The notes beneath the pieces were generated by a model, which did no database searches, was not told the origin of the DNA, and worked only from the letters and a program-made list of their open reading frames with translations. Made by a program: the position numbers and the translations under genes. 64,000 nucleotides of DNA from an uncultured virus (IMG/VR IMGVR_UViG_3300020213_000018) (taxonomy: Duplodnaviria; Heunggongvirae; Uroviricota; Caudoviricetes): the IMG/VR virus record IMGVR_UViG_3300020213_000018. One strand, written 5' to 3'. Below, piece after piece: positions 41,854 through 60,402 of this stretch (positions are counted from its first letter, which is position 1; each line of letters starts with the position of its first letter).

Positions 41854-42079
41854 TATTTAACCCATCAACTATTGATTGAATTTTAGGTAAATCTTTTGGT
41901 AACATTTTTATATGAGTATCATCATTAGTACTATTAAGATTATTATTTTTTGCTTTATCCTTTTCTTTCTTCTTTTTATATTGTTTATGTAAGTACATAC
42001 CACCATAATAAGCACCAACTAAAACCGTAGGTACTAACACTATAATCGCAATGTTTTTTATCAACTTACCCTTATTCAT
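41825..42079 (-). CDS. Small N-anchored membrane protein
   Basis: 84 aa, TM followed by a basic stretch. Confidence 0.7.
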   Translation of the reverse strand: MNKGKLIKNIAIIVLVPTVLVGAYYGGMYLHKQYKKKKEKDKAKNNNLNSTNDDTHIKMLPKDLPKIQSIVDGLNSEIKIVEKK

Positions 42080-42088
42080 TTAAAATAT

Positions 42089-42586
42089 TTATTTATAAAT
42101 AGATTTTAATTTTTTGAAATCAGATTTTACTAACGCATCTAATTTTGGATTTGCTTTCATATCACGGATTAAATTAGTATAGAATTTGGATAAATTACAA
42201 TCATCATCACTAATTACCCTATTGCAATTTAATTTAAGATACTTACGGACAGCATCTCTCATTGTTGTACCATAACGACCATCAACGGTTATACCTGCAT
42301 TATATTTCCAATTAAGCCAAGTTTGAAACATACCAACTTGTGTGCCTTTTGCACCTACTTTTAAACCCGAAGTACTTGTTTCTTTTTCTGTACTCGTTGT
42401 TTCGTCAGATGTTATTGCTCCACCCGATTCAACACCACCACCGCTAGGTGTAGAGCCACCTCCTGAATTATCATCTCCGCCTTTTTTGTTTTTATTTTTA
42501 TTGTAAAAATAAATACCTGTCGCAGTACCACCAACCACAACAACACCTATAATTATCCCGATTATTATTTTAGTTTTTCTTTCCAT
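42089..42586 (-). CDS. N-anchored protein with peptidoglycan-binding-like domain
   Basis: LKVGAKG..V..FQTWLN...VDGRYG..M..AV. Confidence 0.7.
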   Translation of the reverse strand: MERKTKIIIGIIIGVVVVGGTATGIYFYNKNKNKKGGDDNSGGGSTPSGGGVESGGAITSDETTSTEKETSTSGLKVGAKGTQVGMFQTWLNWKYNAGITVDGRYGTTMRDAVRKYLKLNCNRVISDDDCNLSKFYTNLIRDMKANPKLDALVKSDFKKLKSIYK

Positions 42587-42600
42587 GTGATTTATTTTTA

Positions 42601-43122
42601 TTATTTAACTTTAGTAAAGGCTGATTTTTGAGCAATTATATCAGTAATTTTTTCTAATTCCCCTTTACTCATAACCTTATTTAATTGAAATAATAAGTTT
42701 AATCCACTATTAGCTGTAATATAAGATTGAGCTATTTGAGCAATGGCAACCTTATCTCTTAATCCATTAAACACGCCATAAATTTTATCTTCATCTTCCG
42801 TGAAACCTGTAATAGCTTCATCCAAATTTTTTCTAATTCTCGTAATAGCTTCTCTGTTTAATTTTATTATAGCATATCCATTTTTTTTTGCAATATCTTC
42901 AACTTTATTAACATAAGAATCACCATTGAAAACATCACCATAATCTCTAATATCACCATATACATTTATTCTATTTTCAAGAACATTACTTATAGCTATC
43001 ATTAAATTTTTATTTCTCCATTTACGGTATAAAAGAAATCCTGTACCACCAACAACTAAGGTAGAACCAAGCATGATAGCTACATTCCTTGTATTTAATT
43101 CTATTCCTAACAATTTTGCCAT
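42601..43122 (-). CDS. N-anchored protein with annexin-like repeat
   Basis: LDEAITGFTEDEDKIYGVF..LR...IAQSY...G.NL..QL. Confidence 0.55.
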   Translation of the reverse strand: MAKLLGIELNTRNVAIMLGSTLVVGGTGFLLYRKWRNKNLMIAISNVLENRINVYGDIRDYGDVFNGDSYVNKVEDIAKKNGYAIIKLNREAITRIRKNLDEAITGFTEDEDKIYGVFNGLRDKVAIAQIAQSYITANSGLNLLFQLNKVMSKGELEKITDIIAQKSAFTKVK

Positions 43123-43140
43123 TTGAATATTTTTTATAAA

Positions 43141-43569
43141 TTATTTAATCCCTGTTTTTAATGCTGAAACAGCACCAATAGATTTAATCGGATTTTTTAA
43201 TAATCCCCAAACTAACAATGCAAGTCCACCAACAAGTACACCTACTATTATTAAAAAAATCCATTTACCAATATTAAAAAAACCTCCAACAGAATCAATA
43301 ATATCTCCACCAAAATCAGTAACAGATTGAATTGTTGTTTTATCAAGCTCAACACCCTCACCCTTCATGTATTCACGTAAATCACCTGTTGAAGCACTAC
43401 TATTCTTACCACCACGTAAATCCCATGCCTTAATCCAAGTAATATTAGCGTTCTTTTTTCCTAAAGTACGTTTGAGTTTTATATGCCATTGCTTCCAAGC
43501 CTCACCCGAAGAAGACTTCGTTGGCATACTTGAAATAACAGGATGTTGTTTCCACTTTTCTAAATTCAT
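43141..43569 (-). CDS. C-terminally anchored membrane protein
   Basis: Trp-rich N-terminal domain, C-terminal TM. Confidence 0.8.
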   Translation of the reverse strand: MNLEKWKQHPVISSMPTKSSSGEAWKQWHIKLKRTLGKKNANITWIKAWDLRGGKNSSASTGDLREYMKGEGVELDKTTIQSVTDFGGDIIDSVGGFFNIGKWIFLIIVGVLVGGLALLVWGLLKNPIKSIGAVSALKTGIK

Positions 43570-43580
43570 TTCCTTGTTTA

Positions 43581-45089
43581 TTAAATTTGTTTATAATAAG
43601 GTCGCATAAAACATTTTTTATATTTCACGCCATCAAGTTTAACAATATCATCATCCCACCAATGTAATTTTCTACCAAGTGCTGTTTCAATAGTAGATAT
43701 TGAAATTTCTTCACCAAGATAACCTGTAAAATTTGTTTCTTTCATTGAACCGCCTTTAGCGTATGTACCCTTTGCGTGAAATTTAGCATCAATAACTGTT
43801 TGCATATTTTCTTTAGGGTAAATCCCTACATCAAAAGTTTTACCAACAAAATATTTTTTCGCTTCTTCTTCCGAAATAGAACCACTAACGTTTGTTGAGT
43901 AGTTATATTTTGGGTTTTTAAAAATGACATCAACCATACCTAAATTTTTGGTATAGTCATCCATTCCACCACCTTTGGCGTGTTTGTTATCCTTTTCTCT
44001 TAATAATTGTAGCACTTCATTAAAACGAGCAAGTTTAACTTCTCTTTCTTTTCTTAGTGCTTTTGCCTCATCTGATACATCACCCTCACGATAAGTTCCT
44101 AATCTACTACTATTCAAATCTCTTTGAAGTTTACGTAACTCTTTCTCTAAACTTTCAACCACACCGCCTGTGGAGTATCCGTTATCTTTTTTTAGATATT
44201 CAAAAACAATTACGTACCCATCATTTAGCTTATCATCTCCATCTCCATACTTTTTTATTTTCAAATTTCTGTATTCAACAGATTCAGAAGTTTTCATTAA
44301 ATTAAATCTGTTTGTTGCTTCTTTTTTTGTCTTAAACTTTATGGTAGTTCCTTTTCTCCATTCACCAACTACTCCACCTGTTTTCATTTCATCCCAATTA
44401 GTTGAGTTATCCAACCAATCTTTTTCTGATTTAGCATTAACGAACTCTAACCAACTATCCGAAATATGTTCACTTGCTGCATCTGTAACATCCAAATCAT
44501 ATAAAAAATCTTTCTTTTGTTTTTCACTTAATTGATTCCAAATATCTCTTGCCTCCTTATGGCTATCGGGGAACATGGCATACAAATCATTGTAGTCTTT
44601 ATTATTACTTGCGGTTGAACCATCGTTACCCCAATTATCAGAAATTATTTCACCACCTTTTTTATATTCATGCGTTTTACCAAATATATCCGCCATTCTT
44701 TTTTTGAATCCACCGCTTCTCCAAAAATCACTTGCTTCTTTTGAATTAGGATTAATACCTTTTTCTTCTACTTCTTTTTCAAAATCAGAATCTAATTCTG
44801 AAACTTTTTTTGTTTGCTCGGCAGTCCAAACATTACCGCCTTCATCAAACCTCATACCTCTTTTAGCAGATGCTTTTTTATCAGACCTCTCCAAACGATT
44901 CTCGTAATATATATCATCACGCTTACCGTCATGGAAATCTTCAATTTCTGATTGCGTAGGTCTTCCGAATTTATTATCCCCTTTATAGCGGTAGCCTACG
45001 GGTTTACTTTTACGTAACCCATCGGTATGTCTATTATCTCGGTAATCACGCCCCTTTATTATTCTACTTTTTTTCTTTGACATTAACAT
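43581..45089 (-). CDS. GG-delimited modular polyprotein A
   Basis: Six [FYMH]xxGG motifs; N-terminal YYENR..RSD; C-terminal KKCFMRPYY. Confidence 0.8.
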   Translation of the reverse strand: MLMSKKKSRIIKGRDYRDNRHTDGLRKSKPVGYRYKGDNKFGRPTQSEIEDFHDGKRDDIYYENRLERSDKKASAKRGMRFDEGGNVWTAEQTKKVSELDSDFEKEVEEKGINPNSKEASDFWRSGGFKKRMADIFGKTHEYKKGGEIISDNWGNDGSTASNNKDYNDLYAMFPDSHKEARDIWNQLSEKQKKDFLYDLDVTDAASEHISDSWLEFVNAKSEKDWLDNSTNWDEMKTGGVVGEWRKGTTIKFKTKKEATNRFNLMKTSESVEYRNLKIKKYGDGDDKLNDGYVIVFEYLKKDNGYSTGGVVESLEKELRKLQRDLNSSRLGTYREGDVSDEAKALRKEREVKLARFNEVLQLLREKDNKHAKGGGMDDYTKNLGMVDVIFKNPKYNYSTNVSGSISEEEAKKYFVGKTFDVGIYPKENMQTVIDAKFHAKGTYAKGGSMKETNFTGYLGEEISISTIETALGRKLHWWDDDIVKLDGVKYKKCFMRPYYKQI

Positions 45090-45210
45090 TTTTTGTTAAA
45101 AAATATACCCTATAAAAATACTCAAACTAACTGATTATCAGTAACATTTATACTTTACTATCCTGACATTATTAAGTGTAAAATTTAGTAAAGAGTAATT
45201 TTTTAGCTAA

Positions 45211-45393
45211 TTAAAGTTTGCCTTCTTTTACTAATAATGCACTTGCTTTTTTAATTGCAGCAGTCCATTCCATTTTAGGATTTGCTAAACGAAGTTCTTT
45301 TGCACGACCTGAAATAATTGTCATGCGATTTCCACTTCCTGACTTTGCTGATTTCTTTGCTACTACTTTTTTTACTGCTACTTTCTTTGCCAT
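45211..45393 (-). CDS. Small basic (histone-like) putative core protein
   Basis: 60 aa, K/A-rich. Confidence 0.7.
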   Translation of the reverse strand: MAKKVAVKKVVAKKSAKSGSGNRMTIISGRAKELRLANPKMEWTAAIKKASALLVKEGKL

Positions 45394-45415
45394 GATGTTT
45401 ATTTTTTTTTGTTAA

Positions 45416-46630
45416 TTAAATTATAATATTAATTATTTCGTAATATGGTTTCAAAAAACATTTTTTTAGTTTTATTGAACCTACTGTATGAATTGGATAA
45501 TCAAGTTTTTCACTACCTATAACTAATTTCAAATTACTTTCTGCAACTTCATTCTTTTCATTTGCATACTTACGAACTTCGTCTTCAATAGTAGGAGGTA
45601 ATTTTACAGGCTCTTGTAATTTATCATCATCATGTAATTTTTTAATATCACCACCATTTTCCATTTTATGTAAATTTCGATATAATTTTACACGTCGTTG
45701 CCAAAGTCCACCAAGTTGTTCTATCTTATGTAAATCTTCTTTTGTTAATTCTTCTTTACCGTCATTAAGCAAATTCATTTCTTTAGCTTTCCCTTTGATA
45801 TAACCACCTTGCTTATAAAGTTCCTCTGATTTAGGACTTAATAATAATTCATAGACAATATTTTCAGGTCTAATAAATTGCATTTCACCTTCCGTGTATT
45901 TATCTTCTGATATATTACCTGATAATTTTCCAATACCCTGAGTGCCTTGAACAACTTTATATTGAATCTTACCATTCTGCCATTCAGAAATTATTGATTG
46001 AGCATCCTGTTCGTTTTTTGCACCTTCGGTATAAATTGCGTAGTCTTCAATAAATATACCTGCGGTATAAGTATGTTCCCCTGTAACTTTATACAAATTA
46101 ATTACCTTGTACTTTTCTGTACCACTTGAAGATTGCCAACCAAAACCGATACGAATTAAATCAGTTATTATCATCGGAAATGATTTTAATAAATCTGATT
46201 CGGCTATTGTAATATTTTCTGCTTTATCTGAATCACTTTCAATATTACGGGAAAGACCATAAGTTATTTTAAAAACAAACTCGTATCTAACAATATATTC
46301 GTCTTTTTTATTTTTACCTTTTTGTAATTTTTTTATTTCCTGTTGTGCCTCATCATCAGAATTAAATTTTAAAACATTAAAATCCGAATAAGTAGCTTCA
46401 AACGATTTATTTTTTCTATCAATACAATATGGGATATAAAATTGACCTAAGTTAGTATATAAAAGTTCGTCAAATCTAACTCCATTATTATCTACAAATG
46501 TAATGTACGGATGTTTGTGTCTGCTAAAACCCATACCCGCTTCAATAAATCCCGCATTTTGGAAATCAAAACGTTGAGCTTGTTGTTTTTCAACAACAGG
46601 AGCATTATTATTATTATTATTTTCGTTCAC
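45416..46630 (-). CDS. GG-motif protein B
   Basis: YKQGG, MENGG; C-terminal KLKKCFLKPYY; GTG start. Confidence 0.8.
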   Translation of the reverse strand: MNENNNNNNAPVVEKQQAQRFDFQNAGFIEAGMGFSRHKHPYITFVDNNGVRFDELLYTNLGQFYIPYCIDRKNKSFEATYSDFNVLKFNSDDEAQQEIKKLQKGKNKKDEYIVRYEFVFKITYGLSRNIESDSDKAENITIAESDLLKSFPMIITDLIRIGFGWQSSSGTEKYKVINLYKVTGEHTYTAGIFIEDYAIYTEGAKNEQDAQSIISEWQNGKIQYKVVQGTQGIGKLSGNISEDKYTEGEMQFIRPENIVYELLLSPKSEELYKQGGYIKGKAKEMNLLNDGKEELTKEDLHKIEQLGGLWQRRVKLYRNLHKMENGGDIKKLHDDDKLQEPVKLPPTIEDEVRKYANEKNEVAESNLKLVIGSEKLDYPIHTVGSIKLKKCFLKPYYEIINIII

Positions 46631-46642
46631 TATAAATTATTA

Positions 46643-46840
46643 TTAATCTTTTAATAAACCCTTATCATCACTAGACAAACCTAATTGTCTTTTTAGTTTA
46701 AGTATTTCAAGTTTTGTTTTTTTCAAATCAAAATAATTTTTATAAGCAACGAAGACTACTCCAACTATTACCAAACCACCAACAACGGTAGCTGAAATAC
46801 CTATAACTTTCATTAGCGATTTAACTTCCTTGTCACCCAT
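46643..46840 (-). CDS. Small single-TM protein
   Basis: 65 aa. Confidence 0.7.
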   Translation of the reverse strand: MGDKEVKSLMKVIGISATVVGGLVIVGVVFVAYKNYFDLKKTKLEILKLKRQLGLSSDDKGLLKD

Positions 46841-46939
46841 TTTAAACAGTTTTATTTAACATTAAAATATTTTTAAACTTATTATTATACGAATCTTATC
46901 TTTTAACACAGCACATCAAATTTATTACCATTAATTTTT

Positions 46940-49177
46940 TTACGAATCTTTTAAACAACATTTATTAGAAAAACTTTCTAATGGAACTTTATGATAAATA
47001 ACATCAAATTCTTTTACCGATTTTTCATAAAATTTATCAAGTTTTTTTATAACATGATGTCCAATATTTTCAAAACATTCATTACAATCAGGAGAATCTA
47101 ACTTAAATTTTAAAGTAAATACTTCTTCGGGTATATTTATTTCAATAGGATTTACTACTGCATTAAATATAGGACGACCAAGTTCTTCAAAACAAGTATT
47201 ACAATCATCAATTAATTGATTACGGTCTTTAATCATAGAATTACTGAATGGTCTAATCCAATTAGGTCTTGTGTGAGGTCGTGGCGACATAAATTTAACT
47301 TGTTCCTCTGTACGACTATTACCATCACTACATTCAGTAGATTTATCTAATCTTCCACAAATAGTTTCTTTTGAAGTTAAAATATCAACTTTACTAATTT
47401 GCTTGTAATACATTATAAAAGTAACTTCTGAATTTGGAGCAATAGTATATTGATTAATAGTTGTAAGGCAATCAAGTATCATGTCCTTACATTCAAAATC
47501 AAGTGTTGAAATATTAGGTTGAAATTGGTCAGTAGATATTGTTATATTTGGTAAACGTGGATTAATACATAAATTACCATTAGCATCTTTAGTTTGTATT
47601 TCGAGTGGAACAGTAGTTTGAGCAACACTTTGAGTAAAAAACTGAATCTGTCTTACACAAATAGGATTATTTCTTAAATCCTGAATAAACTCATTGTAAT
47701 CTTGGCTACCAACAATGTAACACATACCTTGTGTACCACAGAGTTTTGATACATTGTCTTGAATCATAGAGCCATTATTATTTCTTGTTACCCAAACAGA
47801 ATTATTAAAACTATCATAGGCAAACGAACCATACTCTATTAAACTCACAACTGTTAATGTTACAGGAACAGTATTAGCAATCGTATTTGTAGCACAGTTA
47901 ATAATAATAATATTATTACCATTATAAAAATCATTGAAATAAATTATATTATAAATATCAATACACATCAATGAAGATGTATTAGAACAAGCTACGGCAT
48001 TTGAATAAGTAAATGAACTTAAAGTAAATTCAACAATATCCGTTCCTGCTGAATTAACATAATAAATAGAATTTTTTGTATCATTATAACAAATAGCACT
48101 TCCCCATAATGATGCAGTAGAAGGAGCAATATAATTTGATATAAGAGTATTTGTAGCAGCATTAATTAAACTAAAACTTGTAGATAATGAGTTAACTGCA
48201 AAAGAAAATGTATTTAAACCATCTACCCAAATAACTATACCTCTAACATCTCCTGCTAATGTAATATAAACCCCTCCTGTGTTTGTAGCACAATCTAACA
48301 CCTCAATATTACCATCAGAACCCATACCTAAATACATTGTATTATTAGTTGGATTAAAAGCAATACTTCTTATATTATTTCCTGATGTAGAACCAAAAGA
48401 ACCTACATAAGTTTCTGTTGCACAATCAATAATATCGAGTGAATTTCCAATAGGCAATAAAGGATTTTGTGTAATATACACTCTATTGTTTATTGGATTA
48501 TAAACAGCTTGACCACCACCTAAACTTATACTTGTTAAAGAAATAGTATTTACAACCGTGTTAGTGTTCGGGTTAATAATATTTAAAAATCTATCATCAA
48601 CAACATAAATTCTATCTGTTGAACTCACATATACGGTTGCGTTATTTAATGCTCCCAAAGGTGGAAAAGGCTGAGTTACAACAGCACACTCAAAAGAAGG
48701 ATAGGTTGTACCTGCCGATGGTGGAAAATTCATAATAGGACTACCTAATGGATTCAAAATAGGAACATAACCATTTGGTGTATTTGGTACAGGTATAATA
48801 GAAAATCCATCAAATAAATTAAATGAACATGGTAAGTTTGTTGGATTTACCATCTTAAATAAAACCGCATTAAATATTTTTTGTAGAGGAAGTTTTAATT
48901 TAAACCTTTTTTCTAAAGGTGGTTTTGGGTAATAAGGATGCCCTATGTTTTCAATACACTCGTTACAATCTACATCAGCCTGAGTATGATGTTCTTGTTT
49001 GTTTTTACGTTTATGTTTTTTTCTAACATTAACATCAACGTGAGTAGGTACAGGCTTAGTATTTGTTTTTGTAATTGTATTTGATTTTATTGGAAAAGGA
49101 GTTACATCACCATTATTAGTATTAATAGGATGAGTGGAATTATTGTTAATTTTATTTATTTTACGATTTTCATCCAT
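46940..49177 (-). CDS. Capsid-paralog protein with inserted YVTN-like beta-propeller (minor capsid/turret candidate)
   Basis: Repeats such as YNPINNRVY..IIDCAT.T; flanks align by eye to 60507-61262; three DCNxCxExxG motifs. Confidence 0.75.
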   Translation of the reverse strand: MDENRKINKINNNSTHPINTNNGDVTPFPIKSNTITKTNTKPVPTHVDVNVRKKHKRKNKQEHHTQADVDCNECIENIGHPYYPKPPLEKRFKLKLPLQKIFNAVLFKMVNPTNLPCSFNLFDGFSIIPVPNTPNGYVPILNPLGSPIMNFPPSAGTTYPSFECAVVTQPFPPLGALNNATVYVSSTDRIYVVDDRFLNIINPNTNTVVNTISLTSISLGGGQAVYNPINNRVYITQNPLLPIGNSLDIIDCATETYVGSFGSTSGNNIRSIAFNPTNNTMYLGMGSDGNIEVLDCATNTGGVYITLAGDVRGIVIWVDGLNTFSFAVNSLSTSFSLINAATNTLISNYIAPSTASLWGSAICYNDTKNSIYYVNSAGTDIVEFTLSSFTYSNAVACSNTSSLMCIDIYNIIYFNDFYNGNNIIIINCATNTIANTVPVTLTVVSLIEYGSFAYDSFNNSVWVTRNNNGSMIQDNVSKLCGTQGMCYIVGSQDYNEFIQDLRNNPICVRQIQFFTQSVAQTTVPLEIQTKDANGNLCINPRLPNITISTDQFQPNISTLDFECKDMILDCLTTINQYTIAPNSEVTFIMYYKQISKVDILTSKETICGRLDKSTECSDGNSRTEEQVKFMSPRPHTRPNWIRPFSNSMIKDRNQLIDDCNTCFEELGRPIFNAVVNPIEINIPEEVFTLKFKLDSPDCNECFENIGHHVIKKLDKFYEKSVKEFDVIYHKVPLESFSNKCCLKDS

Positions 49178-50022
49178 TATGTTTTTACAGGTGTAGAATC
49201 GGTTTTAACAAAACATTTTTGGACTTGTCCTTTTGAGAATTTATCAATAAAATCTTTAATAATTTTATATCGCTTATGATTAGATTTATTGTTAGCATCT
49301 TTGAATACATACAAAAATGCTTGATGCGCTTCTATATCAGGGAAATCTTGCGATAAATAAATCATTAATCCATTTATATCAGCACCACTTTCATAACTGA
49401 TAGGACGATTAATTTTTGGATTCATCCATTTATGAGAATACTCATGCAGTAAAATAATTATTCTCATCGGTACAGTATATTTCAAAAATGCTGATTTTGA
49501 AATTTCTATAACACCCGAACCATGACCAATCCTAGCAGGTGTGCTAACAAACCTACCTGTTTTTCTATCACGTATCTTGATATAATAATCAATAGTGAAT
49601 TGATTACTTTCATCTCTATAAATATGTGGGATTCTATCACCCGCAGTAAAATTTGAAGCGTTCTCTGCAAACTTTTTTGCAAATTTTAAAAATGCAACTG
49701 TTTCAGGCGACATCCATATTGGACAAACTCTTGATTTTTCAATTTGTATTTTAGTTACCTTAAAACTACGGTCTTCTCCATTCCTTTGTAGTCCGTTTGC
49801 TGCATTATAAACTGCAAGTAAAGTGTTTTTAGGACTAAGTGGCATTTTTACTTCGTAAGTTCTTTCTCCATTTAAAATATCTTTTCTGTTTTCATACATA
49901 GTTGGATAAATTTTTTGCTTATCCAAGTCTGATGCCACAATACGAATAACTTGTGGTGAATTTGTTTTCACAGAAATTTTTATTGTAACAGGTTTTTTAT
50001 TAGTTTTTATTGGCAGTATCAT
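49177..50022 (-). CDS. Zincin-like metalloprotease
   Basis: IILLHEYSH (HEXXH) followed by ESGAD. Confidence 0.75.
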   Translation of the reverse strand: MILPIKTNKKPVTIKISVKTNSPQVIRIVASDLDKQKIYPTMYENRKDILNGERTYEVKMPLSPKNTLLAVYNAANGLQRNGEDRSFKVTKIQIEKSRVCPIWMSPETVAFLKFAKKFAENASNFTAGDRIPHIYRDESNQFTIDYYIKIRDRKTGRFVSTPARIGHGSGVIEISKSAFLKYTVPMRIIILLHEYSHKWMNPKINRPISYESGADINGLMIYLSQDFPDIEAHQAFLYVFKDANNKSNHKRYKIIKDFIDKFSKGQVQKCFVKTDSTPVKT

Positions 50023-50046
50023 GGTGCGTTTTATTTTTTTTAAAAA

Positions 50047-50787
50047 TTATTTTGCTAATACTGCTGTTGGTTTTTTCATATACTTAAATACTAAAAAACC
50101 TCCTATGGCAATAACTCCAACTATCACTGTAATTCCTAATGGAGTTTTAAAAAAATTATTTTTTTCTATTGATGAAGATTCACCACCACCACCACCTGAC
50201 TGTTGTGTCACTTGTTCTTCTGTAATTTTATTTTGTTCTGCCATACACTTATCGTATTCCTGTCTTCTTTTACCTTTTCTTCTTACACCACGTTTCCCAC
50301 AAGCAGAAGTTGCTCTAGCTTCTCTCTTAGCTAAACGATTTGACAATAAAGCAGCACCCGCTTGTTTTAATTGTTCTTTTTGTTCGTCACTCAAATTAAA
50401 ATTAATTTTTTCTATTTCAGGCTTAGTTGATGAAGTTGATTTTGTAGATGAAGTTGATTTTGTAGATGAAGTTATTATAGGTCTATCATCTTGTCTTATT
50501 GAAGTAGAAGCACCTCTATCAGAAACACTTTTTAAATAAGATGTATAATCTTTCTTTCCCTTACTCCAAGCAGCACTTGTGTTTTTACCCCACTTACCAT
50601 CTACAACTAATTTTCCACCTTTGTTTTCATTATACCAAGATTGGAAATTTAATATTTCAGATGATTTACTTGAACCACTTATTGAAGAATATAATGGAAA
50701 ATACACATCATGCGGTACAAGAAATAAACGAACATCTTGCTTATCTAATAATTCATCAGGAGTATTTATTGGGTCGAAACTTATCAT
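50047..50787 (-). CDS. Tail-anchored protein with PG-binding-like and basic Cys-pair domains
   Basis: FQSWYN...VDGKWGKNT; ACGK...EYDKC; C-terminal TM. Confidence 0.8.
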   Translation of the reverse strand: MISFDPINTPDELLDKQDVRLFLVPHDVYFPLYSSISGSSKSSEILNFQSWYNENKGGKLVVDGKWGKNTSAAWSKGKKDYTSYLKSVSDRGASTSIRQDDRPIITSSTKSTSSTKSTSSTKPEIEKINFNLSDEQKEQLKQAGAALLSNRLAKREARATSACGKRGVRRKGKRRQEYDKCMAEQNKITEEQVTQQSGGGGGESSSIEKNNFFKTPLGITVIVGVIAIGGFLVFKYMKKPTAVLAK

Positions 50788-52026
50788 AATTTATTTATTT
50801 TAGTTTAATTTATATAATGTTATATTTTTTAATTTAATTTTTATGCAGATTTAACTTTCATTAGTTTTTTGATAATCAAAAATCCGCCAACTAATAATAA
50901 AGCACCACCTATATATACAACCGCAGGTGGAAGACCAAGAATTTTATTATCACCATCTAATTCGGGTTTTGTTTTGTCATCTAATGGTAAACCTTTAGCC
51001 TTATCTTCGGCAGCACCTTTTTCAGCATCTTGAATCGCTTTAGTTTCTTCGGGTGTGGGTTGTGGGGCATCAGTTCCATCAGTATCAAAACTTTTACCTT
51101 TTGGACTGTTTGGGTCGTATGGATTTTTTTTAGCACCTGATTTAACTATTATATCTGTTATTTTAAGTGCTACTCCTGTTGATGCTGTTATTATTGATGC
51201 TGTTATAACAGCGTCCATATTTGAATATTCTTCATCACCTATTCCATAATACTCACCATCAAAATTATATTCACCATCAATACTAGTAACTTTTTCTTTC
51301 TCTTTTCTCGCTTTAGCTTTTTTTGTATTAAGTACAGGTTTGTTGTGTGCGCCTTTAATTGGCTTATCCAAACGATTCGGGTCGCCTCCTACACGTATAT
51401 AAAATGCTTTTACTTTATCCAACGCTTTTCTTGCATTAGGTAAATTACTAACATCAAAGTTTTTTTCTTTCGCTTCTGATTCTGATAATAATGCGGGATA
51501 TAATCGGCTACTTATACCAAAAATATTAAATCTAAGTGCTGTTAAAAAAAGACCACGTAATCCAACAGCAGCAGGATTAAATTTCTGTAATTTTCTGCCT
51601 GATTTTCCTTTCTCAACTTTACCTTCAAGTAATGCCTTCCTAAATTCGTCATTACGAGTTTTCGCTAATTCTTTTTTATCTGAACGACTTTTTCCTTTAT
51701 CTTCTACTTTTGTTTCTTTAAGACACTCACGAAATTCTTTTCCTTTTAAACCTTTTGCTTTACAAAGTTTTCGTCTTCCTCCCAATAAAGCAATATTTGA
51801 ATATTCCTGTCCTGAGAAATTTTCAATTAGATTTTTATTTATAGGTTCAAAACTTCCTATTCCTTCATGCTCTTTTTTAGCATCTGAACGTTTTTTATTA
51901 CGTTCTTCTTTTGACATAATATTTGAAAAATACACATCATTCGGTACAAGAAATAAACGAACATCTTGCTTATCTAATAATTCATCAGGAGTATTTATTG
52001 GGTCGAAACTTATCATAATTTATTTA
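50698..52026 (-). repeat. 100-bp direct repeat (50698-50797 and 51927-52026, one mismatch) encoding a shared leader
   Basis: Both genes start MISFDPINTPDELLDKQDVRLFLVPxDVYF. Confidence 0.95.
50841..52016 (-). CDS. Basic tail-anchored putative virion protein
   Basis: Acidic leader, K-rich body, KILGL-TM-K tail. Confidence 0.8.
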   Translation of the reverse strand: MISFDPINTPDELLDKQDVRLFLVPNDVYFSNIMSKEERNKKRSDAKKEHEGIGSFEPINKNLIENFSGQEYSNIALLGGRRKLCKAKGLKGKEFRECLKETKVEDKGKSRSDKKELAKTRNDEFRKALLEGKVEKGKSGRKLQKFNPAAVGLRGLFLTALRFNIFGISSRLYPALLSESEAKEKNFDVSNLPNARKALDKVKAFYIRVGGDPNRLDKPIKGAHNKPVLNTKKAKARKEKEKVTSIDGEYNFDGEYYGIGDEEYSNMDAVITASIITASTGVALKITDIIVKSGAKKNPYDPNSPKGKSFDTDGTDAPQPTPEETKAIQDAEKGAAEDKAKGLPLDDKTKPELDGDNKILGLPPAVVYIGGALLLVGGFLIIKKLMKVKSA

Positions 52027-52036
52027 AAAAAATTAA

Positions 52037-52582
52037 TTAAGCAGTAGCAGTACTCACTCCCTTACCCTTCATCACGCTACGCACAACAAAGAAACCACCG
52101 ATAGCAACAACGGCAATACCAATAAAGAAAATGGGTTTTGATAAACCAAGAATTTTTCCACTTTCATCTCCACTACCTGAACCTGCTCCACTACCTGATG
52201 TATCTCCACCTTTATCATTACCACTATCACCCGAAGTTGCGGTTGCAGAAGCATCTTTTTTAACTGTTGTAGATGTAGAATCACTTGTAGGAGAAGGAGA
52301 TTCTGTTTGCCCTGCACCTGTTGATGTTTCTGCGTCTGTATTTTCTGTTGTGGTAGAATCAGTAGTAGCCACAGTATTAGTTCCACCACCTTTTTTAGTA
52401 GAACGTTTTTCTACACGAGCAGTTTTTTTATTGTCACGTTTTTCTACACGAGCAGTTTTTTTAGTAGAACGTTTTTCTTTACGGGTATCTTTTTTAGCTT
52501 TACGCTTACTTGATATATTTGAAAAACTATCGTCTAAAAAATTAGATGTTGACGGCTCAAATTCAATTTGATTTATTTCCAT
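52037..52582 (-). CDS. Basic-repeat tail-anchored protein (paralog of 52617-53522)
   Basis: MEINQIEFEP leader, ARVEKR repeats, KILGLSKPIFFIG tail. Confidence 0.85.
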   Translation of the reverse strand: MEINQIEFEPSTSNFLDDSFSNISSKRKAKKDTRKEKRSTKKTARVEKRDNKKTARVEKRSTKKGGGTNTVATTDSTTTENTDAETSTGAGQTESPSPTSDSTSTTVKKDASATATSGDSGNDKGGDTSGSGAGSGSGDESGKILGLSKPIFFIGIAVVAIGGFFVVRSVMKGKGVSTATA

Positions 52583-52616
52583 TTTTTTATTTTTTTAAAT
52601 TATTTAATTTAATTTA

Positions 52617-53522
52617 TTATGCAGCTTTAGCAGAACCTTTACCTTTCATTTTTTTAATAATAAAGAAACTAACAACGGCAATAACGGCAAGACCGATAAA
52701 AAATATAGGTTTTGACATACCGAGAATTTTTCCTTCTTCTTTACCTCCGCCACCTTCACCTTTTGCTTCGCCTTCTTTTTTAGAATCTGCTCCACCTTCT
52801 TCTCCTGCACCTTCTCCACCACCTTGTTTTGAACCTGAACCTGCTCCGCCACTTGAGGTTGAACCTCCACCACCAACATCACCACCACCAACTGTTCTTG
52901 GATTCCTACTCATCATATCACCACTTCCTGAATCACCACTTCCTGAATTGGTTGAAGACACATTACCTGATTCACCACCACCTTGCTCTTGTGATTCTTG
53001 TTGGTTTTGAGCTTCATCTTTTGGAGTTGGAGTTGAAGATGTTTCGTTTACAGGAGGCTTATCATCATCACCTTGTTGTAGTTGTTGTCCCTGTGGCTGA
53101 TTTTGTAATGAATCAGTTGTGTTAATAGTATCCGTTACAGGTAACTCACTTACACCTGTGTTTACTTTTCCTTTACCTTTACGTACTGCACGTTTTTCTA
53201 CACGAGTAGATTTTTTATCAGAACGTTTTTCTATACGGGTAGCTTTTTTATCTTGTCTTACAGCTTTTCTATCGTCACGTTTTTCTACACGAGCAATTTT
53301 TTTATCGGCACGTTTTTCTACACGAGCAATTTTTTTATCGTCACGTTTTTCTACACGAGCAATTTTTTTATCGGCACGTTTTTCTTGACGTTCAGATTTT
53401 TTAGAACCACCACCGCTTCCGCCTGATGATGATTTGTTTTTTGATTTTCCTCTAGCATTTGAAAAACTATCATCAAGAAAGTTTGACATTGCGGGTTCAA
53501 ATTCTATTTGGTTAATGTCCAT
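52617..53522 (-). CDS. Basic-repeat tail-anchored protein
   Basis: MDINQIEFEP leader, 11-aa KKIARVEKRxD repeats, G/S linker, KILGMSKPIFFIG tail. Confidence 0.85.
   Translation of the reverse strand: MDINQIEFEPAMSNFLDDSFSNARGKSKNKSSSGGSGGGSKKSERQEKRADKKIARVEKRDDKKIARVEKRADKKIARVEKRDDRKAVRQDKKATRIEKRSDKKSTRVEKRAVRKGKGKVNTGVSELPVTDTINTTDSLQNQPQGQQLQQGDDDKPPVNETSSTPTPKDEAQNQQESQEQGGGESGNVSSTNSGSGDSGSGDMMSRNPRTVGGGDVGGGGSTSSGGAGSGSKQGGGEGAGEEGGADSKKEGEAKGEGGGGKEEGKILGMSKPIFFIGLAVIAVVSFFIIKKMKGKGSAKAA
53190..53395 (-). repeat. 33-bp coding tandem repeat (~6 units)
   Basis: CGTTTTTCTACACGAGCAATTTTTTTATC recurs with 33-bp period; ends approximate. Confidence 0.85.
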
Positions 53523-53563
53523 TTTGTTTATTTTTTTAGGGTTTAATTTATATTTTAATTTAG

Positions 53564-54154
53564 TTATGTTAATGGTACAGCAGAAGGCGAAGGGCTAGAA
53601 GCACCTGCACTTTTTGCGAAAAACTTTTTGTAAATAAAAAATCCTGCTATCGCAACAACTCCAACAATAACAGGAATTGCAACTGATTTTGACATACCTA
53701 ATATTTTATCATCAGATTCTTTTTTAGGAGGTCTTTGTTCTGATTGTGGTTTATAAGATTGAGAACTTTCAGCAGGGGTTATAGTAGGATTTTTTGTTTT
53801 AACATATTCCTGAACGCATTTATCCCACTCAGCCCTCTTTCTTTTAAATAATGGTTTTTTACCACAAGCTGATTTATTGTCTTTCCTTTGTGATTTACGT
53901 GCTTGTTTAGCTTCATTTTGTTGGCGACTAGCAAGTGCCGTAGCTAGACCTGCTGTTACAGTTCCAGCTTGTACAATAGCATCAGCATCCACATTTGAAT
54001 AAATATCAACACGACGACGATAACTATTACGATGATTATCTTGACGACGACCAATATTATTTATTGCATTACGTGTATGTATTGATGATTCACCAACAAC
54101 ATTACTGTCAAGCAAGTTATTATTTGGGCAGTCTAATAAATCTGAATTAATCAT
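53564..54154 (-). CDS. Tail-anchored protein with basic Cys-pair domain
   Basis: YSNVDA; ACGKK...EWDKC; KILGMSK-TM. Confidence 0.8.
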   Translation of the reverse strand: MINSDLLDCPNNNLLDSNVVGESSIHTRNAINNIGRRQDNHRNSYRRRVDIYSNVDADAIVQAGTVTAGLATALASRQQNEAKQARKSQRKDNKSACGKKPLFKRKRAEWDKCVQEYVKTKNPTITPAESSQSYKPQSEQRPPKKESDDKILGMSKSVAIPVIVGVVAIAGFFIYKKFFAKSAGASSPSPSAVPLT

Positions 54155-54185
54155 GTTTTTTTTTAATTATTAAAAATGTAATGTA

Positions 54186-54563
54186 TTACGCTTTTTTCTC
54201 ATCCTTTTCTCCTTTAAGGATAACTTTTGCACCAAGACCTGCAACAGTACCGAATACGATTGAACCTAATAATCCATATCCGATGTATGCAAAAAATCCT
54301 TTTTTCTTAGAAAAGGCGTATCCTAAACCCGCAATTAAACCAACCGAACTTCCGAATGATGCGATGTTTACTATTTTTTTTGTACGTTTATCCATAATGT
54401 TTTTATCGAACTTAATAGCATCTTTAGGTGCTACTGTAACAGTTGTTTTTGTTTCAGTTTTTGTAGTTGAACCTGACGGTGATTGAACCGTAGTGTTTTC
54501 TTCTTTTACTGTTGATGTTTTTGTATCAGCAGGTTTAGTCGTTTTAATTGTTTCGTTTGACAT
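54186..54563 (-). CDS. Two-TM glycine-zipper membrane protein
   Basis: Likely start MSNETIK at 54563; GxxxG helices. Confidence 0.75.
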   Translation of the reverse strand: MSNETIKTTKPADTKTSTVKEENTTVQSPSGSTTKTETKTTVTVAPKDAIKFDKNIMDKRTKKIVNIASFGSSVGLIAGLGYAFSKKKGFFAYIGYGLLGSIVFGTVAGLGAKVILKGEKDEKKA

Positions 54564-54582
54564 GATTTTTTGTTTTAAGGGT

Positions 54583-54786
54583 TTATATTTTTTTTGTACG
54601 ATTAATAACATCATCAACAACAGACTTAACATTTTTAACTGTATCAGATAATAGTTTATTTTTATCAGCATCTTCTTTTAATGCAGCAATTTGTTTATCT
54701 TGCTTATTCATTTTATTTATTGCGTATGCAGCGAATCCTAAAAGACCTACACCTAACGCTAAATGAATTATGTTTTCTGTTTTCAT
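54583..54786 (-). CDS. Small single-TM protein
   Basis: 67 aa. Confidence 0.75.
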   Translation of the reverse strand: MKTENIIHLALGVGLLGFAAYAINKMNKQDKQIAALKEDADKNKLLSDTVKNVKSVVDDVINRTKKI

Positions 54787-54800
54787 GGTTTTATTTTTTT

Positions 54801-55310
54801 TTAGTTTAATATTAATTTTTTAGCACTTTTGTTTTTTAAAATCTTTACAGTAGCAGCTATTCCTACTAATGCGATAACAGCCATACAAGTATATCCGTAT
54901 AATGGTTTCATACCAAACACGGTTTTATTTTCTTCATATTTTTTACTACTACTTTTTTTTGTATCACTATTATTTTTGGTGTCAGGATTAATGTTATCTT
55001 TTTGCTGTTGTGGTTTAGTATTTCCACTACCAAAATTATTATCATCAGTAGCGTTTTGTACATTACTCTTAACTTCATTTTGTTGTTGAGTTTCAATTTC
55101 AGCTTTAACACCATCCGCAGATGATAAATCAAATTCATCATTTGAACTACCGTTAGTGCCAAGAATTTCAGAAACAACCTCACCATCTTCTTTTAAAGTA
55201 GTAACCTTAGTACGAATACTTTTTTTATTAGTACGACGACGATTCACGAAGTCATTATAGTCTTCGTGTTCGTTAATCGGTTTATCAATTATGTTTTCGT
55301 ATAATTCCAC
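54801..55310 (-). CDS. Tail-anchored protein
   Basis: LSSADG motif; KTVFGMKP-TM-K tail. Confidence 0.75.
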   Translation of the reverse strand: MELYENIIDKPINEHEDYNDFVNRRRTNKKSIRTKVTTLKEDGEVVSEILGTNGSSNDEFDLSSADGVKAEIETQQQNEVKSNVQNATDDNNFGSGNTKPQQQKDNINPDTKNNSDTKKSSSKKYEENKTVFGMKPLYGYTCMAVIALVGIAATVKILKNKSAKKLILN

Positions 55311-55316
55311 TTCTTA

Positions 55317-56558
55317 TTATATTTTTATGTAACAACCTCTTAAAAATTGTTTCTTTAATTTAGTGTTACCAACATGACAAACAGGATAGCAAGGTTTACG
55401 ACCAATAATGTTTTCAAAATCTGAACATAAAATTTCATTTTTACCATCTAACTTAGCTAACACTAAATCTTCTTCTGATTTTTTAACATCACCACCTTTA
55501 GCGTATTCTATTTTTTTACCAAATTTATCAGTAATCATATTTATTCCACTCTCAACACTCTCAAATCCTGCTTCTTTTTCAGCTTCATAAAGTGCGCTAT
55601 CTTCGTCTTTTGCAAAACCAACCCAATCGTGGCTTTTTCCATATTTACTGTTTATTGTTACTGCCCATTCAGGAATGTTTTTATTTTCACCAACCCCACC
55701 GCCTTTAGACATTTTAGATAAATCATAATTAGAAGCCCAATTATCAAATTCACGAATGGCATTTGTATTACCATATTTATCTTCTAAAAGTCTAACTTCT
55801 TTTTGACCAAAGTTTTCATAAAGACCTTTAGATTTTGCTTTTGAAATAAGCATTAATTTATATTTTTCTATGTCTTTTGATTCGTTACCAACCCCACCGC
55901 CTTTAGCAAATTTTTCAGAAACATAACCTTCTTCAATTAAAAATTTAGTTAAGTCTTCGGGTGAAAAATCTAAACCGTTAGGTTTAACATCATAATAACT
56001 ACCTCTCTCATCAAGTAAATATTGATAAGTTTCTTTTTCAAAATCATACCCTTTCTTTTTCAAGTAGGCTAAAAACTCTTTAAATTCTTTTGCTTCTTGA
56101 TTAGAAATTGCCTGATTATAAAATTCTTCCAAATCTTCATATTCTAATCCATCTTTAACGAATCCATCAGCAGGTTTTCCGAAAACAAATGCAGCTTCTC
56201 CATTATATCCTGTTGTTTCAGAAACGATATTTTTTGGATGATTTTTTTTGAAATAAGCTATTGAAACTTTATCTCCAAAATCACCTGCGTAATCCGAATA
56301 ACTAAATTGTATAACGGTATCATCTTCTTTTATTTTTGATTTTAATTTCTTCTTTAATGAAGCAGAACCAAAACTGTTGCCTATTTCATCATGCGAAACA
56401 ACTTCACCGCCTTTAGCAAATTTCTTTGTACGGTTTACATCAGAACGATTAGGTCTGTTTTCGTAATAAACATTTCCATCTTCCGATGTGCGTTTACCTG
56501 CGTGTAAAGCCTTTATTTTTTTATCTTTTTTTATAGATGCCTTAGTTCTTTTTGTCAT
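55317..56558 (-). CDS. GG-delimited modular polyprotein C
   Basis: FAKGG x2, MSKGG, YAKGG; N-terminal YYENRPNRSD; C-terminal KLKKQFLRGCY. Confidence 0.8.
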   Translation of the reverse strand: MTKRTKASIKKDKKIKALHAGKRTSEDGNVYYENRPNRSDVNRTKKFAKGGEVVSHDEIGNSFGSASLKKKLKSKIKEDDTVIQFSYSDYAGDFGDKVSIAYFKKNHPKNIVSETTGYNGEAAFVFGKPADGFVKDGLEYEDLEEFYNQAISNQEAKEFKEFLAYLKKKGYDFEKETYQYLLDERGSYYDVKPNGLDFSPEDLTKFLIEEGYVSEKFAKGGGVGNESKDIEKYKLMLISKAKSKGLYENFGQKEVRLLEDKYGNTNAIREFDNWASNYDLSKMSKGGGVGENKNIPEWAVTINSKYGKSHDWVGFAKDEDSALYEAEKEAGFESVESGINMITDKFGKKIEYAKGGDVKKSEEDLVLAKLDGKNEILCSDFENIIGRKPCYPVCHVGNTKLKKQFLRGCYIKI

Positions 56559-56583
56559 TTTATTTTATTTTTAAAATGATTAA

Positions 56584-58716
56584 TTATGTTGCAGGTATTA
56601 ATTTAGCTGCACCTTTACCTTTGTTTACATACCAAATAATTCCTATTACTGTAAGTCCAACAGCAGTTGCAACGATAGCAAAATTTATCGGGTGCATACC
56701 TAAAATAGTTTTCTCACCTTTAGGAGAATCACCACCTCTTGATATATCACCTTCACCTTCGGTAGAAGTTTCACCCGCAGCTTGTTTTGATTTTGCTTGT
56801 AAGAAAGCAGCACCAAATTGTGCTATTGAGTTCATTAAATTTTTAGCACCCTCAGATTTTGTCCACTCAGAAAATGGTTTTGTACTTCCGCTACTTTCGT
56901 AAACAGCTTTCATTTCATCTTCTGTGTAAACTACTTTATTTTTATCAGCTAATATAGCAGCTTGTTCTTTAGTTAGTGCCTTACTTTTTTTATTAGCTTT
57001 ATTTTCTGCTCTTTTTTCTTTACTAAAAACTCCTTTTGCCCAATCTCCAAAAGCGTTTGACATTTCTTCGCTTCCGTCGAAAGCTAACATATCACCACCA
57101 CCATGATAATCTTCTTCTAATGCACCACCATTAAATGATAAATTATCATTAAGACGACGATTAGTATTAACTTTCATTTCTCTACGTTGCATACGTGAAA
57201 AACCATCAGCACCTAAATCCATATTTTGATTAACATCAAGTGCGGGTCTTCTGCTTCCATTAAAACCTAAATCAAGATTTGTGTTTGATGTAAAATCACT
57301 TTCACCATCAGCACCTAAATCAAGATTTGTGTTTGATGTAAAATCACTTTCACCATCAGCACCTAAATCCATATTTTGAGTAATATCAAGTTCGGGTCTT
57401 CTGCTTCCATTAAAACCTAAATCCCAATTAATATTATTATTAGCATCAAACCCTAAATCAAGATTGTTTAGTGTAACATCCATTGCGGGTCTATTACGGC
57501 TTCCATCAGAACCTAAGTCAAGGTTTGTATTTCCGTCAAATCCTAAATCAAGATTAGTATTACCATCTAAAGAAGATTTTTTAATTCCTTTTTTAAGGCT
57601 ACGATTACGACCACGATTTACATAACGACGATTACGACGACGTGGATGTTTACGACGTGGACGTGATACTCTACCTCCCTGAACACTTAAATCAATATTT
57701 GTATTTCCGTCAAAAGATAAATCAAGGGTTGTATTTCCATCTAAAGAAGAAGTTGATTTTTTAATAGCTAAACGTTTTTTAATAATTGGTCTAACTGCAC
57801 CAATATGAACTAACATATTTGCCTTATTATTTTCTCCAATCTTAATAAAACCTGCTGATTTTGTTATTACTGATATAGCTTTTGTTTTTTTATCTTTCTT
57901 TCTGAACTTAAAATTACCTTTAGGTAAAATAGTTCCTGAAACTTTAGAACCTTTACCTAGTTTTCTTTTTGTAAAGTGAATAACACCTGTTGATTTATCC
58001 TGTGCAAATACTTTCGCTTGTGGTTTTACTACTCTGAATTTTTTAGAACCATCAGCACTTGAACTATCACCGTCAAATGATAAATCTAAAGATGTATTAC
58101 CATCGAATGATAAATCAAGATTTGTGTTTGAAGTGAAATCACTTTCACCATCAAATCCTAAATCCAAATCTGTATTACCATCAAAAGACACACTTACTTC
58201 TTTAATTTTTTTTTCAACTCCTTTAGCCCAAGTAATCTGTTCAGGACTAACACCATATTTTCCTTCATTTTTTAAAATGTATTGGTAATATGGTATTGCT
58301 TTTTCAGCATCAATATAATTGTACGGAGCATTTTTATCCATCTTCAACATTTTACGTAAAGTACCTTGATACTTAACGAATACTAAGTTGGCTCTTACTC
58401 TTGAAATACGACCAAGTGCTTTATCTTTTTGTTTAACAGGAACACCTTTTTGGCTATCAGGAACTTTATAATAATCGCTATCTTCTATAACCATCCAATC
58501 ATTATCGGGTGCTTGTAAAGTTTGAATACCTACCGATACGTTTGTAACAGGTCTTGGCTTTTTATCATAACAAGCATTTGTTTTTTCGTTAGCAACATTA
58601 GACTTGTCATTAGGTTGTATAATTATTTTATTATCATAATTACAAACCTGAATATTTTGTCCTTTTTTACCTTTAACGGGAACAGTTTTGAATATTTCAT
58701 TTTTATTGATAGCCAT
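56584..58716 (-). CDS. Large tail-anchored protein with NTNLDL[GS][FA]DG repeats
   Basis: About 15-20 motif copies interleaved with basic domains; KTILGM-TM tail. Confidence 0.85.
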   Translation of the reverse strand: MAINKNEIFKTVPVKGKKGQNIQVCNYDNKIIIQPNDKSNVANEKTNACYDKKPRPVTNVSVGIQTLQAPDNDWMVIEDSDYYKVPDSQKGVPVKQKDKALGRISRVRANLVFVKYQGTLRKMLKMDKNAPYNYIDAEKAIPYYQYILKNEGKYGVSPEQITWAKGVEKKIKEVSVSFDGNTDLDLGFDGESDFTSNTNLDLSFDGNTSLDLSFDGDSSSADGSKKFRVVKPQAKVFAQDKSTGVIHFTKRKLGKGSKVSGTILPKGNFKFRKKDKKTKAISVITKSAGFIKIGENNKANMLVHIGAVRPIIKKRLAIKKSTSSLDGNTTLDLSFDGNTNIDLSVQGGRVSRPRRKHPRRRNRRYVNRGRNRSLKKGIKKSSLDGNTNLDLGFDGNTNLDLGSDGSRNRPAMDVTLNNLDLGFDANNNINWDLGFNGSRRPELDITQNMDLGADGESDFTSNTNLDLGADGESDFTSNTNLDLGFNGSRRPALDVNQNMDLGADGFSRMQRREMKVNTNRRLNDNLSFNGGALEEDYHGGGDMLAFDGSEEMSNAFGDWAKGVFSKEKRAENKANKKSKALTKEQAAILADKNKVVYTEDEMKAVYESSGSTKPFSEWTKSEGAKNLMNSIAQFGAAFLQAKSKQAAGETSTEGEGDISRGGDSPKGEKTILGMHPINFAIVATAVGLTVIGIIWYVNKGKGAAKLIPAT
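57200..58190 (-). repeat. Coding repeat arrays (LDLG[FA]DG units, including a 48-bp tandem duplication near 57265-57370)
   Basis: ACCTAAATCAAGATTTGTGTTTGATGTAAAATCACTTTCACCATCAGC is repeated; ends approximate. Confidence 0.85.
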
Positions 58717-58745
58717 TTTATTTAGGTTTTAAGTTTAATTAGTAT

Positions 58746-59006
58746 TTATTTTCTTTTAAAATTAAATTCTTGTTTCTCTTGACTTGATGATATAATATTG
58801 TGTCCGATATACCCCCCTCCAACAATTCCAACAACTATACAAATAGGCATATTCCATTTAAAATAATATCCTGATAAAAGTCCTATTATTCCACCAACAA
58901 CTGCACCTTTAGTATATCCACCCGCTCTTTCTGAAATATTTTTACCATAAGTATTATTCTTTAATTCATTTGCATTTTTATTTATTTTATCGTCTTCAAT
59001 TGCCAT
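58746..59006 (-). CDS. Glycine-zipper two-TM protein
   Basis: GAVVGGIIG...GIVGGGYIG. Confidence 0.75.
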   Translation of the reverse strand: MAIEDDKINKNANELKNNTYGKNISERAGGYTKGAVVGGIIGLLSGYYFKWNMPICIVVGIVGGGYIGHNIISSSQEKQEFNFKRK

Positions 59007-59017
59007 TTATAAAAAAA

Positions 59018-59821: not shown

Positions 59822-59847
59822 TATATTTATTTTTTTAAAAAATTAAT

Positions 59848-60402
59848 TTAACTTTTAGCAATTACCGCAAAGGCAACTAAAGCAACAGCACCAACGATAA
59901 CTAAAGGCATCATTGATTCCATTTTATTTTCAGATTTTTCCTTTACAGGTTTTGATACTTGTTTAGATTCTTCTGTTTTTGTTTCAACAACAGGAGTTTC
60001 AGGTTTTTTATCACCTTCAACATTACTTGTTTTGTTGCAACTACATTTTTTACCATCACATCCACTTGTTTCTTCACCGTCCGCTCCTGAACATCCACAA
60101 GCGTTTGATGATTCCTCACTACCGTCGGCAGATGATTCACAACCACAAGCACCCGATTTCTTTTCAGTAGCAATAGTAGTAGTAGTAGAAACAGGTTTAA
60201 TAGTTGATAACAATAAACTTCTGTAAGGCGTATTAATAGAAGCAAAGTCTGTAACAGCAGTTTCACCATGTTTTTTCATAACGTGGTGCATCTTACGAAT
60301 TAAGTCAGACATATTTGCTGCCTTTACTCCATACTTTGCCAAAATAACTTGCGCTTCATTTGGATTATTTGTGGCTATGTAATGTTCAATAGTAACTTTC
60401 AT
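59848..60402 (-). CDS. Tail-anchored protein with Cys-rich xADG repeats
   Basis: ACGCESSADG, ACGCSGADG, SGCDG, SNVEG; C-terminal TM. Confidence 0.8.
   Translation of the reverse strand: MKVTIEHYIATNNPNEAQVILAKYGVKAANMSDLIRKMHHVMKKHGETAVTDFASINTPYRSLLLSTIKPVSTTTTIATEKKSGACGCESSADGSEESSNACGCSGADGEETSGCDGKKCSCNKTSNVEGDKKPETPVVETKTEESKQVSKPVKEKSENKMESMMPLVIVGAVALVAFAVIAKS

Follow-up and report, generated by a model that had tools for sequence, protein, structure and literature searches.

Putative virion cargo precursors divided by a Gly-Gly motif and closed by a common C-terminal module in an uncultured, probably membrane-containing virus

The African swine fever virus (ASFV) polyproteins pp220 and pp62 are cut by pS273R and the adenovirus precursors by adenain, at Gly-Gly sites with hydrophobic-x-GG spacing. 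In T4, phiKZ and SPN3US one protease (gp21, gp175 and gp245, respectively) trims the capsid leaders together with internal proteins, and a terminal tag directs packaging (PMC5694885, PMC10052503). For the polyvalent proteins of Iyer et al. (2017; PMC5512222), zincin peptidases are predicted to release the domains; in the main text of that paper 'glycine' occurs 0 times and no junction motif is given. The tape measure protein pb2 of phage T5 is cut after R1127 (PMC10038345). The system presented here comprises three genes in a stretch of 64,000 nucleotides (nt) from an uncultured virus (IMG/VR record IMGVR_UViG_3300020213_000018); the whole stretch is called the window and all coordinates are window positions unless another contig is named. 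The products of the three genes are divided by a recurrent Gly-Gly motif and are probably precursors of virion cargo, cut at the motif by a protease, in what would be a large, probably membrane-containing, tail-less bacterial virus. Cleavage at the motif, predicted here from sequence, is in itself fairly likely. Literature searches found no paper on this virus family or on the motif, and neither 'protease' nor 'polyprotein' has a match in the available text of Yutin 2018 (PMC5894146).

The three open reading frames (ORFs) lie on the minus strand and encode proteins of 502 amino acids (aa; 43581-45089), 404 aa (45416-46630) and 413 aa (55317-56558). Together they contain 12 [MFYH]xxGG motifs in 1319 residues, against 1.22 on average and never more than 7 in 5000 shuffling trials, and the remaining ORFs of the window contain 7 in 18,526 residues. 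The motif list of a preliminary description of this DNA was recovered exactly, and with it the homologous C-terminal domain of all three proteins, whose C-termini align, and the basic module ending in YYENR..RSD with which two of them start, the two modules also being alignable. The recurrence of motif-coding DNA reported there was found as well: ACCGCCTTTAG, with at most one mismatch, has 6 matches against 0.45 expected, 5 of the 6 on motif codons. The fuller consensus, taken from 1204 motifs of 189 related proteins, is K-[YFML]-[AEK]-[KND]-G-G-x-[VIL], the first position of the motif being also Leu (9% of the motifs) and rarely His. None of the three proteins has a match in Pfam or PADLOC, and only two short weak matches were identified in PHROG. 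The single-sequence fold prediction of the 413-aa protein was unusable (predicted local distance difference test, pLDDT, 36), and the search gave no cultured-phage match to this protein as a whole.

The 502-aa protein comprises 6 motifs and 7 modules. It opens with a basic module of net charge +11 (44835-45089), ending in YYENR..RSD and followed by FDEGG. An acidic module (residues 147-239, 44373-44651) and the module of residues 310-374 (43968-44162) have homologues inside a 3006-aa polyprotein of G003, a 375-kb contig in a Bacteroidota metagenome-assembled genome (MAG) that is syntenic with nearly the whole window. The module of residues 375-447 (43749-43967) is followed by the first copy of the C-terminal module (43584-43748). 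The 413-aa protein comprises 4 motifs and 5 modules: a basic module of net charge +10 followed by FAKGG (56406-56558), an acidic module of 170 aa (55896-56405) whose 10 family members have 7 left and 10 right neighbour families, the YENFGQKE module (55698-55895), the module of residues 288-356 with 19 family members (55491-55697) and the third copy of the C-terminal module (55320-55490). The 404-aa protein is formed, in fixed order, by a 276-aa domain, a 51-aa module and the C-terminal module, the linker and this second copy occupying 45419-45649; the module size of 50-170 aa given in the preliminary description fails for this protein, whose first module has 276 aa.

The position of the motif relative to the modules was assessed in 189 dereplicated related proteins with 1204 motifs and 16,062 internal alignment ends. 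In 55.9% of the cases a motif lies at most 8 aa from the end, compared with 19.1% for places chosen at random; when both the motifs and the decoy sites were masked, the shares were 49.8% for motifs and 13.3% for decoys. An earlier set of 112 proteins (721 modules in 399 families, 331 of them singletons), which included 10 unrelated tail-fibre-like IGGG-repeat proteins dropped later, had given 61-70% at motifs, 19% at random places and 2-5% at decoys, the signal of the enlarged and cleaned set being weaker, still clear. The motifs stand between domains and not within folded ones, as the preliminary description had supposed: no motif falls inside any of the 18 Pfam domain matches, and LPD11, DUF5661, DUF7028 and DUF7659 are bracketed by motifs within about 15 residues.

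The reassortment of modules among related genomes, also proposed there, is apparent in several ways. The 413-aa protein has 76 non-self homologues, of which one covers 83% and the others at most 68%, 75 of them carrying the motif, and relatives of up to 2368 aa with 26 motifs were identified. In G003 the syntenic orthologue of the 413-aa protein (330 aa) agrees with it at both ends and differs in the middle. The position of the 502-aa gene is taken in G003 by an unrelated gene, the two modules mentioned above being found in the 3006-aa protein 60 kb off. For the YENFGQKE module, the 25 members flanked by motifs have neighbours from 22 families on the left and 19 on the right. No homologue was identified in the data searched for two of the 15 window modules. 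Recombination at the motif DNA or next to it would exchange the modules, as the comparison of relatives indicates. Contigs from four other samples contain 4 joints whose two ends both lie inside polyprotein genes, and all 4 end at a distance of 0-13 nt from motif codons, where chance would give 15-18% per end; these positions are only a hint, because the joints have short sides of 24-39 nt, were called at a likeness setting of 85 and enclose letters that were not seen.

The same joints are expected if the motif is an uncleaved flexible joint and a recombination handle, polyvalent proteins being delivered whole and the repeated DNA only aiding the swapping. The motif DNA is indeed a near-identical 25-nt repeat, the first Gly codon is GGC in 35% of the motifs (78/221) and in 17% of other GG pairs (234/1409; the sites are not independent), and N4 vRNAP, ArdC and TraC1 are delivered uncut (PMC5512222). 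This explanation is nevertheless unlikely. In the 404-aa family, where the order is fixed, Y272, G275 and G276 and also M323, G326 and G327 are invariant in 9/9 aligned sequences while the two middle residues vary, and the motif is therefore selected as protein. Its codons also differ between genomes, a like sequence is cut in T5 and, as described below, Glu-ending sites delimit one of the modules in phages that encode a gp21-type protease. A different origin, in which K-G-G is the fossil of a Shine-Dalgarno (SD) word (AAA GGA GGT) left in frame by gene fusion, would suit the gene-sized modules, and AAGGAGG could encode A-K-G-G. It was rejected as having a negligible chance: GGA is under-used as first Gly codon (0/11 in the window and 1/52 in G003, against 30% background), a start codon follows few motifs, and an SD-like word is present upstream of only 4/68 window genes.

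The modules are apparently small independent proteins of about 45-190 aa, some of them free genes elsewhere, that would have been captured between copies of [FYML]-A-x-G-G-x-V. Vibrio phage vB_CoeS_P1 has a homologue of module 375-447 of the 502-aa protein as a free gene of 67 aa (XTP71519.1; 37.7% over 90%, E 3e-6). The YENFGQKE module was identified in 33 distinct proteins of other phages: as a free gene of 70-97 aa in 11, in an ESVNE-punctuated protein in 20 and in another form in 2. A T4 gp21-type prohead protease is encoded in all five of the ESVNE-type records that were tested, and the zincin-like protein described below is absent from all five. The site rule of the T4 prohead protease is (I/L)-x-E, and ESVNE resembles a site of this type. 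The gp21-type family cuts after Glu (PMC5694885). The same cargo is thus fenced in each case by a site of its virus's own protease type; among the indirect arguments for cleavage this is the strongest. Cassette proteins of their own, punctuated by ESVNE (up to 6 per protein), are also present in phages that encode a gp21-type protease.

The cargo identified in the proteins of relatives includes ArdA, LPD1, LPD11, ART-PolyVal, PBECR5, RadC, GNAT and topoisomerase IB. The proposal of anti-defence cargo is accordingly supported by known conflict domains in the relatives, and in the window itself none of the modules has a significant Pfam, PHROG or PADLOC match. The window cargo probably interferes with the host or its defences at an early stage, and the released proteins would begin with A-x-G-G and act early in the host. 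In G003, a 990-aa protein beside the polyproteins contains VCHELGH and LPD1.

The C-terminal module is the last one in 24/24 clustered members. It lies at most 7 aa from the protein end in all 45 rows of the local search (some rows being duplicates) and in 149/150 among the matches listed, out of 359 representatives in all. The motif is present in 99/103 carriers of at least 200 aa. The 55-aa module, modelled on the copy of the 413-aa protein, forms a helix, a strand, a helix and three strands and folds alone in the prediction (pLDDT 87.7). Foldseek gave no PDB match at E 0.001, which is no proof of a new fold, and the VIA fold search gave a best Z of 4.2, mostly to winged helices and with weak likeness. 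A search of viral contigs with a three-sequence alignment of the module gave no match. The module is fused to topoisomerase IB, RadC and GNAT proteins and also to an acidic protein without GG; fusion to unrelated proteins fits the expectation for a loading tag. The homology between the GG-less carrier in G003 and a membrane-anchored protein of the related contig G001 is not significant (E 0.065). This fixed module would bring unrelated cargo into the particle. Comparison of the relatives establishes, at the level of sequence, both the modular construction and the terminal tag.

The cut in T5 pb2 falls in the context FVPR|AEGGMM, in register with hydrophobic|A-x-G-G-x-[VIML] in the proteins studied here, and lambda gpH contains FATGG733 and YATGG778 in its C-terminal part. 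As T5 pb2 is cut before Ala-x-Gly-Gly, the products are predicted to start with A-x-G-G and not to be cut after GG, a position derived from one mapped site with a different preceding residue. The protease would act during maturation or on entry, likeliest between the hydrophobic residue and Ala. The GG-X processing of ASFV type that was first suggested is not sustained in detail: the only mapped like cut, that of T5, precedes Ala-x-Gly-Gly, and no Ulp1/adenain-like protease was identified, Peptidase_C48 and C5 having no match on the virus contigs of 22 records, 12 of them near-complete (the C57 and C63 models formed no part of this search, and the window leaves out about half of the virus). 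Two C48 matches are located on other contigs of one MAG.

The best candidate for the cutter is a zincin-like protein with HExxH and a downstream Glu, encoded on the minus strand at 49177-50022. H193, E194, H197 and E211 are invariant in 45/45 aligned sequences and HE[FY][SA]H is kept in 130/132 matches, so that by its sequence the protein has the HExxH and downstream Glu of a gluzincin-type metallopeptidase. It is a separate gene, the three window polyproteins containing no HExxH. A search of viral contigs with the single sequence gave no match; the alignment then gave 43 viral loci, 369 metagenomic matches (of which the best 80 were taken) and 6 genome loci. No cultured-phage match was obtained in the search. 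Motif-coding DNA was identified in 33/38 zincin-bearing virus records, including 12/12 near-complete ones, with 301 matches compared with 2 in the control. The window, G001 and G002 are the only ones reached without the zincin as query, and all three contain it. The chance that this conserved neighbour is the cutter is placed slightly below even.

The zincin would also, with less certainty, cut at x|A-[DN]-G and thereby trim off the acidic leaders from both capsid-like and membrane proteins. The putative major capsid protein (251 aa; 60507-61262, minus strand) has an acidic N-terminal leader with sites of the form [FYM]-x-x-[AF]-[DNSE]-G; across 35 capsid-like proteins, 45 such sites occur within the leading 75 aa and 2 in the other 5844 residues. 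The density of this word is 10.6 per 10,000 in membrane proteins near the zincin and 1.07 in non-virion regions. A block of mostly membrane-anchored putative virion genes occupies 50047-60402 on the minus strand, several with an N-terminal [FY]-S-N-[AFIV] site. In two pairs, neighbouring membrane genes have a common leader up to the [FY]-S-N site (50695-50797 with 51924-52026, and 52517-52615 with 53457-53555; 98% and 74% DNA identity, respectively). A membrane-anchored protein of 710 aa (56584-58716), with a close orthologue in G003, contains many degenerate NTNLDL[GS]FDG/ADG repeats and is rich in the capsid-leader type of word.

Several observations weigh against tagged precursors cut by the zincin at the motif. 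T5 pb2 is cut after Arg, a residue absent from the 428 that precede A[KDNE]GGx[VIML] here, and the cut site and catalyst of lambda gpH are unknown (PMC12617516). The zincin has no Pfam or PDB match, only atlas leads below 0.9 to metallopeptidases, and its universality is partly circular because most relatives were fetched with it. It is absent from 28/28 searchable motif-only records (29 of at least 16 kb were picked from the 80 listed; the search had positive controls and only 3 records are near-complete), and 14 motif-only stretches inspected by eye correspond to tape-measure-like or small basic proteins of tailed phages. The capsid-leader and cargo motifs differ in register. The C-terminal module was not found in the contigs G001 and G005. 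The basic YYENR..RSD modules are first in 10/38 and 8/34 members and last in 18/34; the idea that both termini are packaging tags fits the strictly terminal C-module, and the basic module is no dedicated N-terminal tag. Being found first, inside and last, the basic modules look like repeated DNA-binding pieces and not like a leader, and they probably bind DNA. Finally, module order, which varies for the modules of the 413- and 502-aa proteins, is fixed in the 9 non-self homologues of the 404-aa protein (8 full length and one 75% piece).

The presence of the motif in viruses without the zincin is one reason to consider it a signal for docking or export, which a virion or host machine would read in loading, unfolding or threading through the entry pore, or else a host-protease site, either of which would explain its use by unrelated viruses. 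Tandem motif pairs spaced 6-10 aa are common, and the title of a 1973 study cited in PMC10038345 names a part played by the host in cleaving a T5 tail protein. No candidate reader was found, however, and in the capsid-like protein the acidic leader finishes at related sites, which is the usual place of maturation cuts; this alternative is distinctly improbable. Small basic phage proteins with repeated [MYF]AxGG words and without the zincin were also observed.

Turning from the alternatives to the setting of the putative cargo precursors, the polyprotein genes form part of a minus-strand block of 32 kb, together with genes for lysis enzymes (GH19, SLT), numerous short proteins with membrane anchors, the capsid-like protein and the HExxH protein. 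They sit in this putative virion block on the same strand. The capsid-like protein has no PDB match, 1/35 members having a weak match to a PHROG head protein (E 0.0017) and the atlas scores being below 0.9. A P-loop gene is conserved near the capsid gene in 63 loci including G001 and G003, outside the window, with weak HerA/Zot matches (E 3e-4 to 4e-3). Terminase_6N was identified in 0/19 records, the same model finding only 2/5 comparison phage records, and inverted terminal repeats in 4/38 records. The virus is probably tail-less and membrane-containing, judging by these genes. The 413-aa protein is present on contigs of up to 123 kb in the protein collection, therefore about half of the virus lies outside the window. 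Scarce SD words are as expected in Bacteroidota, and 4/6 genome records matched by the zincin alignment are Bacteroidota bins; a Bacteroidota host fits. The window DNA is present in mat metagenome runs, and none of the RNA datasets was listed with window sequence.

Other genes of the window and its relatives were also identified. A 745-aa protein resembling a capsid paralogue (46940-49177) has a central insert (joint 47753-48683) replaced by 944 other letters in two samples (X10, X11), which suggests a swapped receptor-binding part. The G003 contig contains about eight genes for capsid-protein paralogues, five giant polyproteins and a second zincin copy without HExxH (22570-23361 of that contig), and looks like one very large virus. 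In G001, an AAA_5/MoxR-like ATPase and a neighbouring DUF7192 protein are located between polyprotein genes (41855-44860 of that contig), the ATPase being a possible chaperone for cargo loading. Glycosyltransferase-like genes, assigned by eye, flank the virion block at 61808-63841 and 27855-29432 and are conserved in G003. Elsewhere in the window, and also by eye, there are presumably an IS200/IS605-type TnpB gene (20424-21542, absent from G003), an RtcB-like ligase (19080-20354) and a pyruvate phosphate dikinase-like gene (11456-13330).

A broader and tentative view is that of a family of large membrane-containing bacterial viruses, from 70 to perhaps 375 kb, maturing by a zinc protease, in place of a cysteine or serine protease, which would also free dozens of small effectors from cassette polyproteins loaded by the C-terminal tag; the x|A-x-G-G code, common with tailed phages, would then locate the lambda gpH cut. 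With the motif as a divider, long hypothetical proteins resolve into several hundred small modules and, since the few named ones include anti-restriction and host-modifying enzymes, the rest form a delimited library of candidate early effectors. The processing of polyvalent proteins, so far only predicted, gains a concrete site and a candidate enzyme, testable without culturing the virus, and the motif may bear on how tape-measure proteins are cut.

Compared with the known systems, the tape measures are similar in that lambda gpH (processed to gpH* and gpHC) has the aromatic-A-x-G-G motif and T5 pb2 (to pb2* and pb2C) is cut in a like sequence; pb2 has one known cut in a tailed-phage tail ruler, whereas up to 26 motifs per protein are present here. 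A tape-measure joint domain of about 50 aa (GE[FY]V) gave no match with a six-sequence hidden Markov model, and a look-alike at the start of G001, G005 and G003 proteins reached 3% in hhalign, the profiles being shallow. ASFV and adenovirus likewise have Gly-Gly-site precursors in viruses with FtsK-type packaging ATPases or jelly-roll capsids, but their products form a conserved core shell, in contrast to the variable cargo and the hydrophobic-x-x-GG spacing found here. Phages with T4 gp21-type proteases carry the same YENFGQKE module; they cut after Glu and use N-terminal tags, whereas the present system has a Gly-Gly-type site, a folded C-terminal tag and a candidate zincin. The polyvalent proteins (PMC5512222) are similar as long virion-type proteins that join unrelated conflict domains, which here are those of the relatives; they commonly embed a zincin metallopeptidase or assemblin (about 36%), while in the present system a core gene of its own encodes the zincin, most modules have no Pfam family and a terminal tag is present. 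The system works like polyvalent proteins and T4-type head cargo, and not like the ASFV type.

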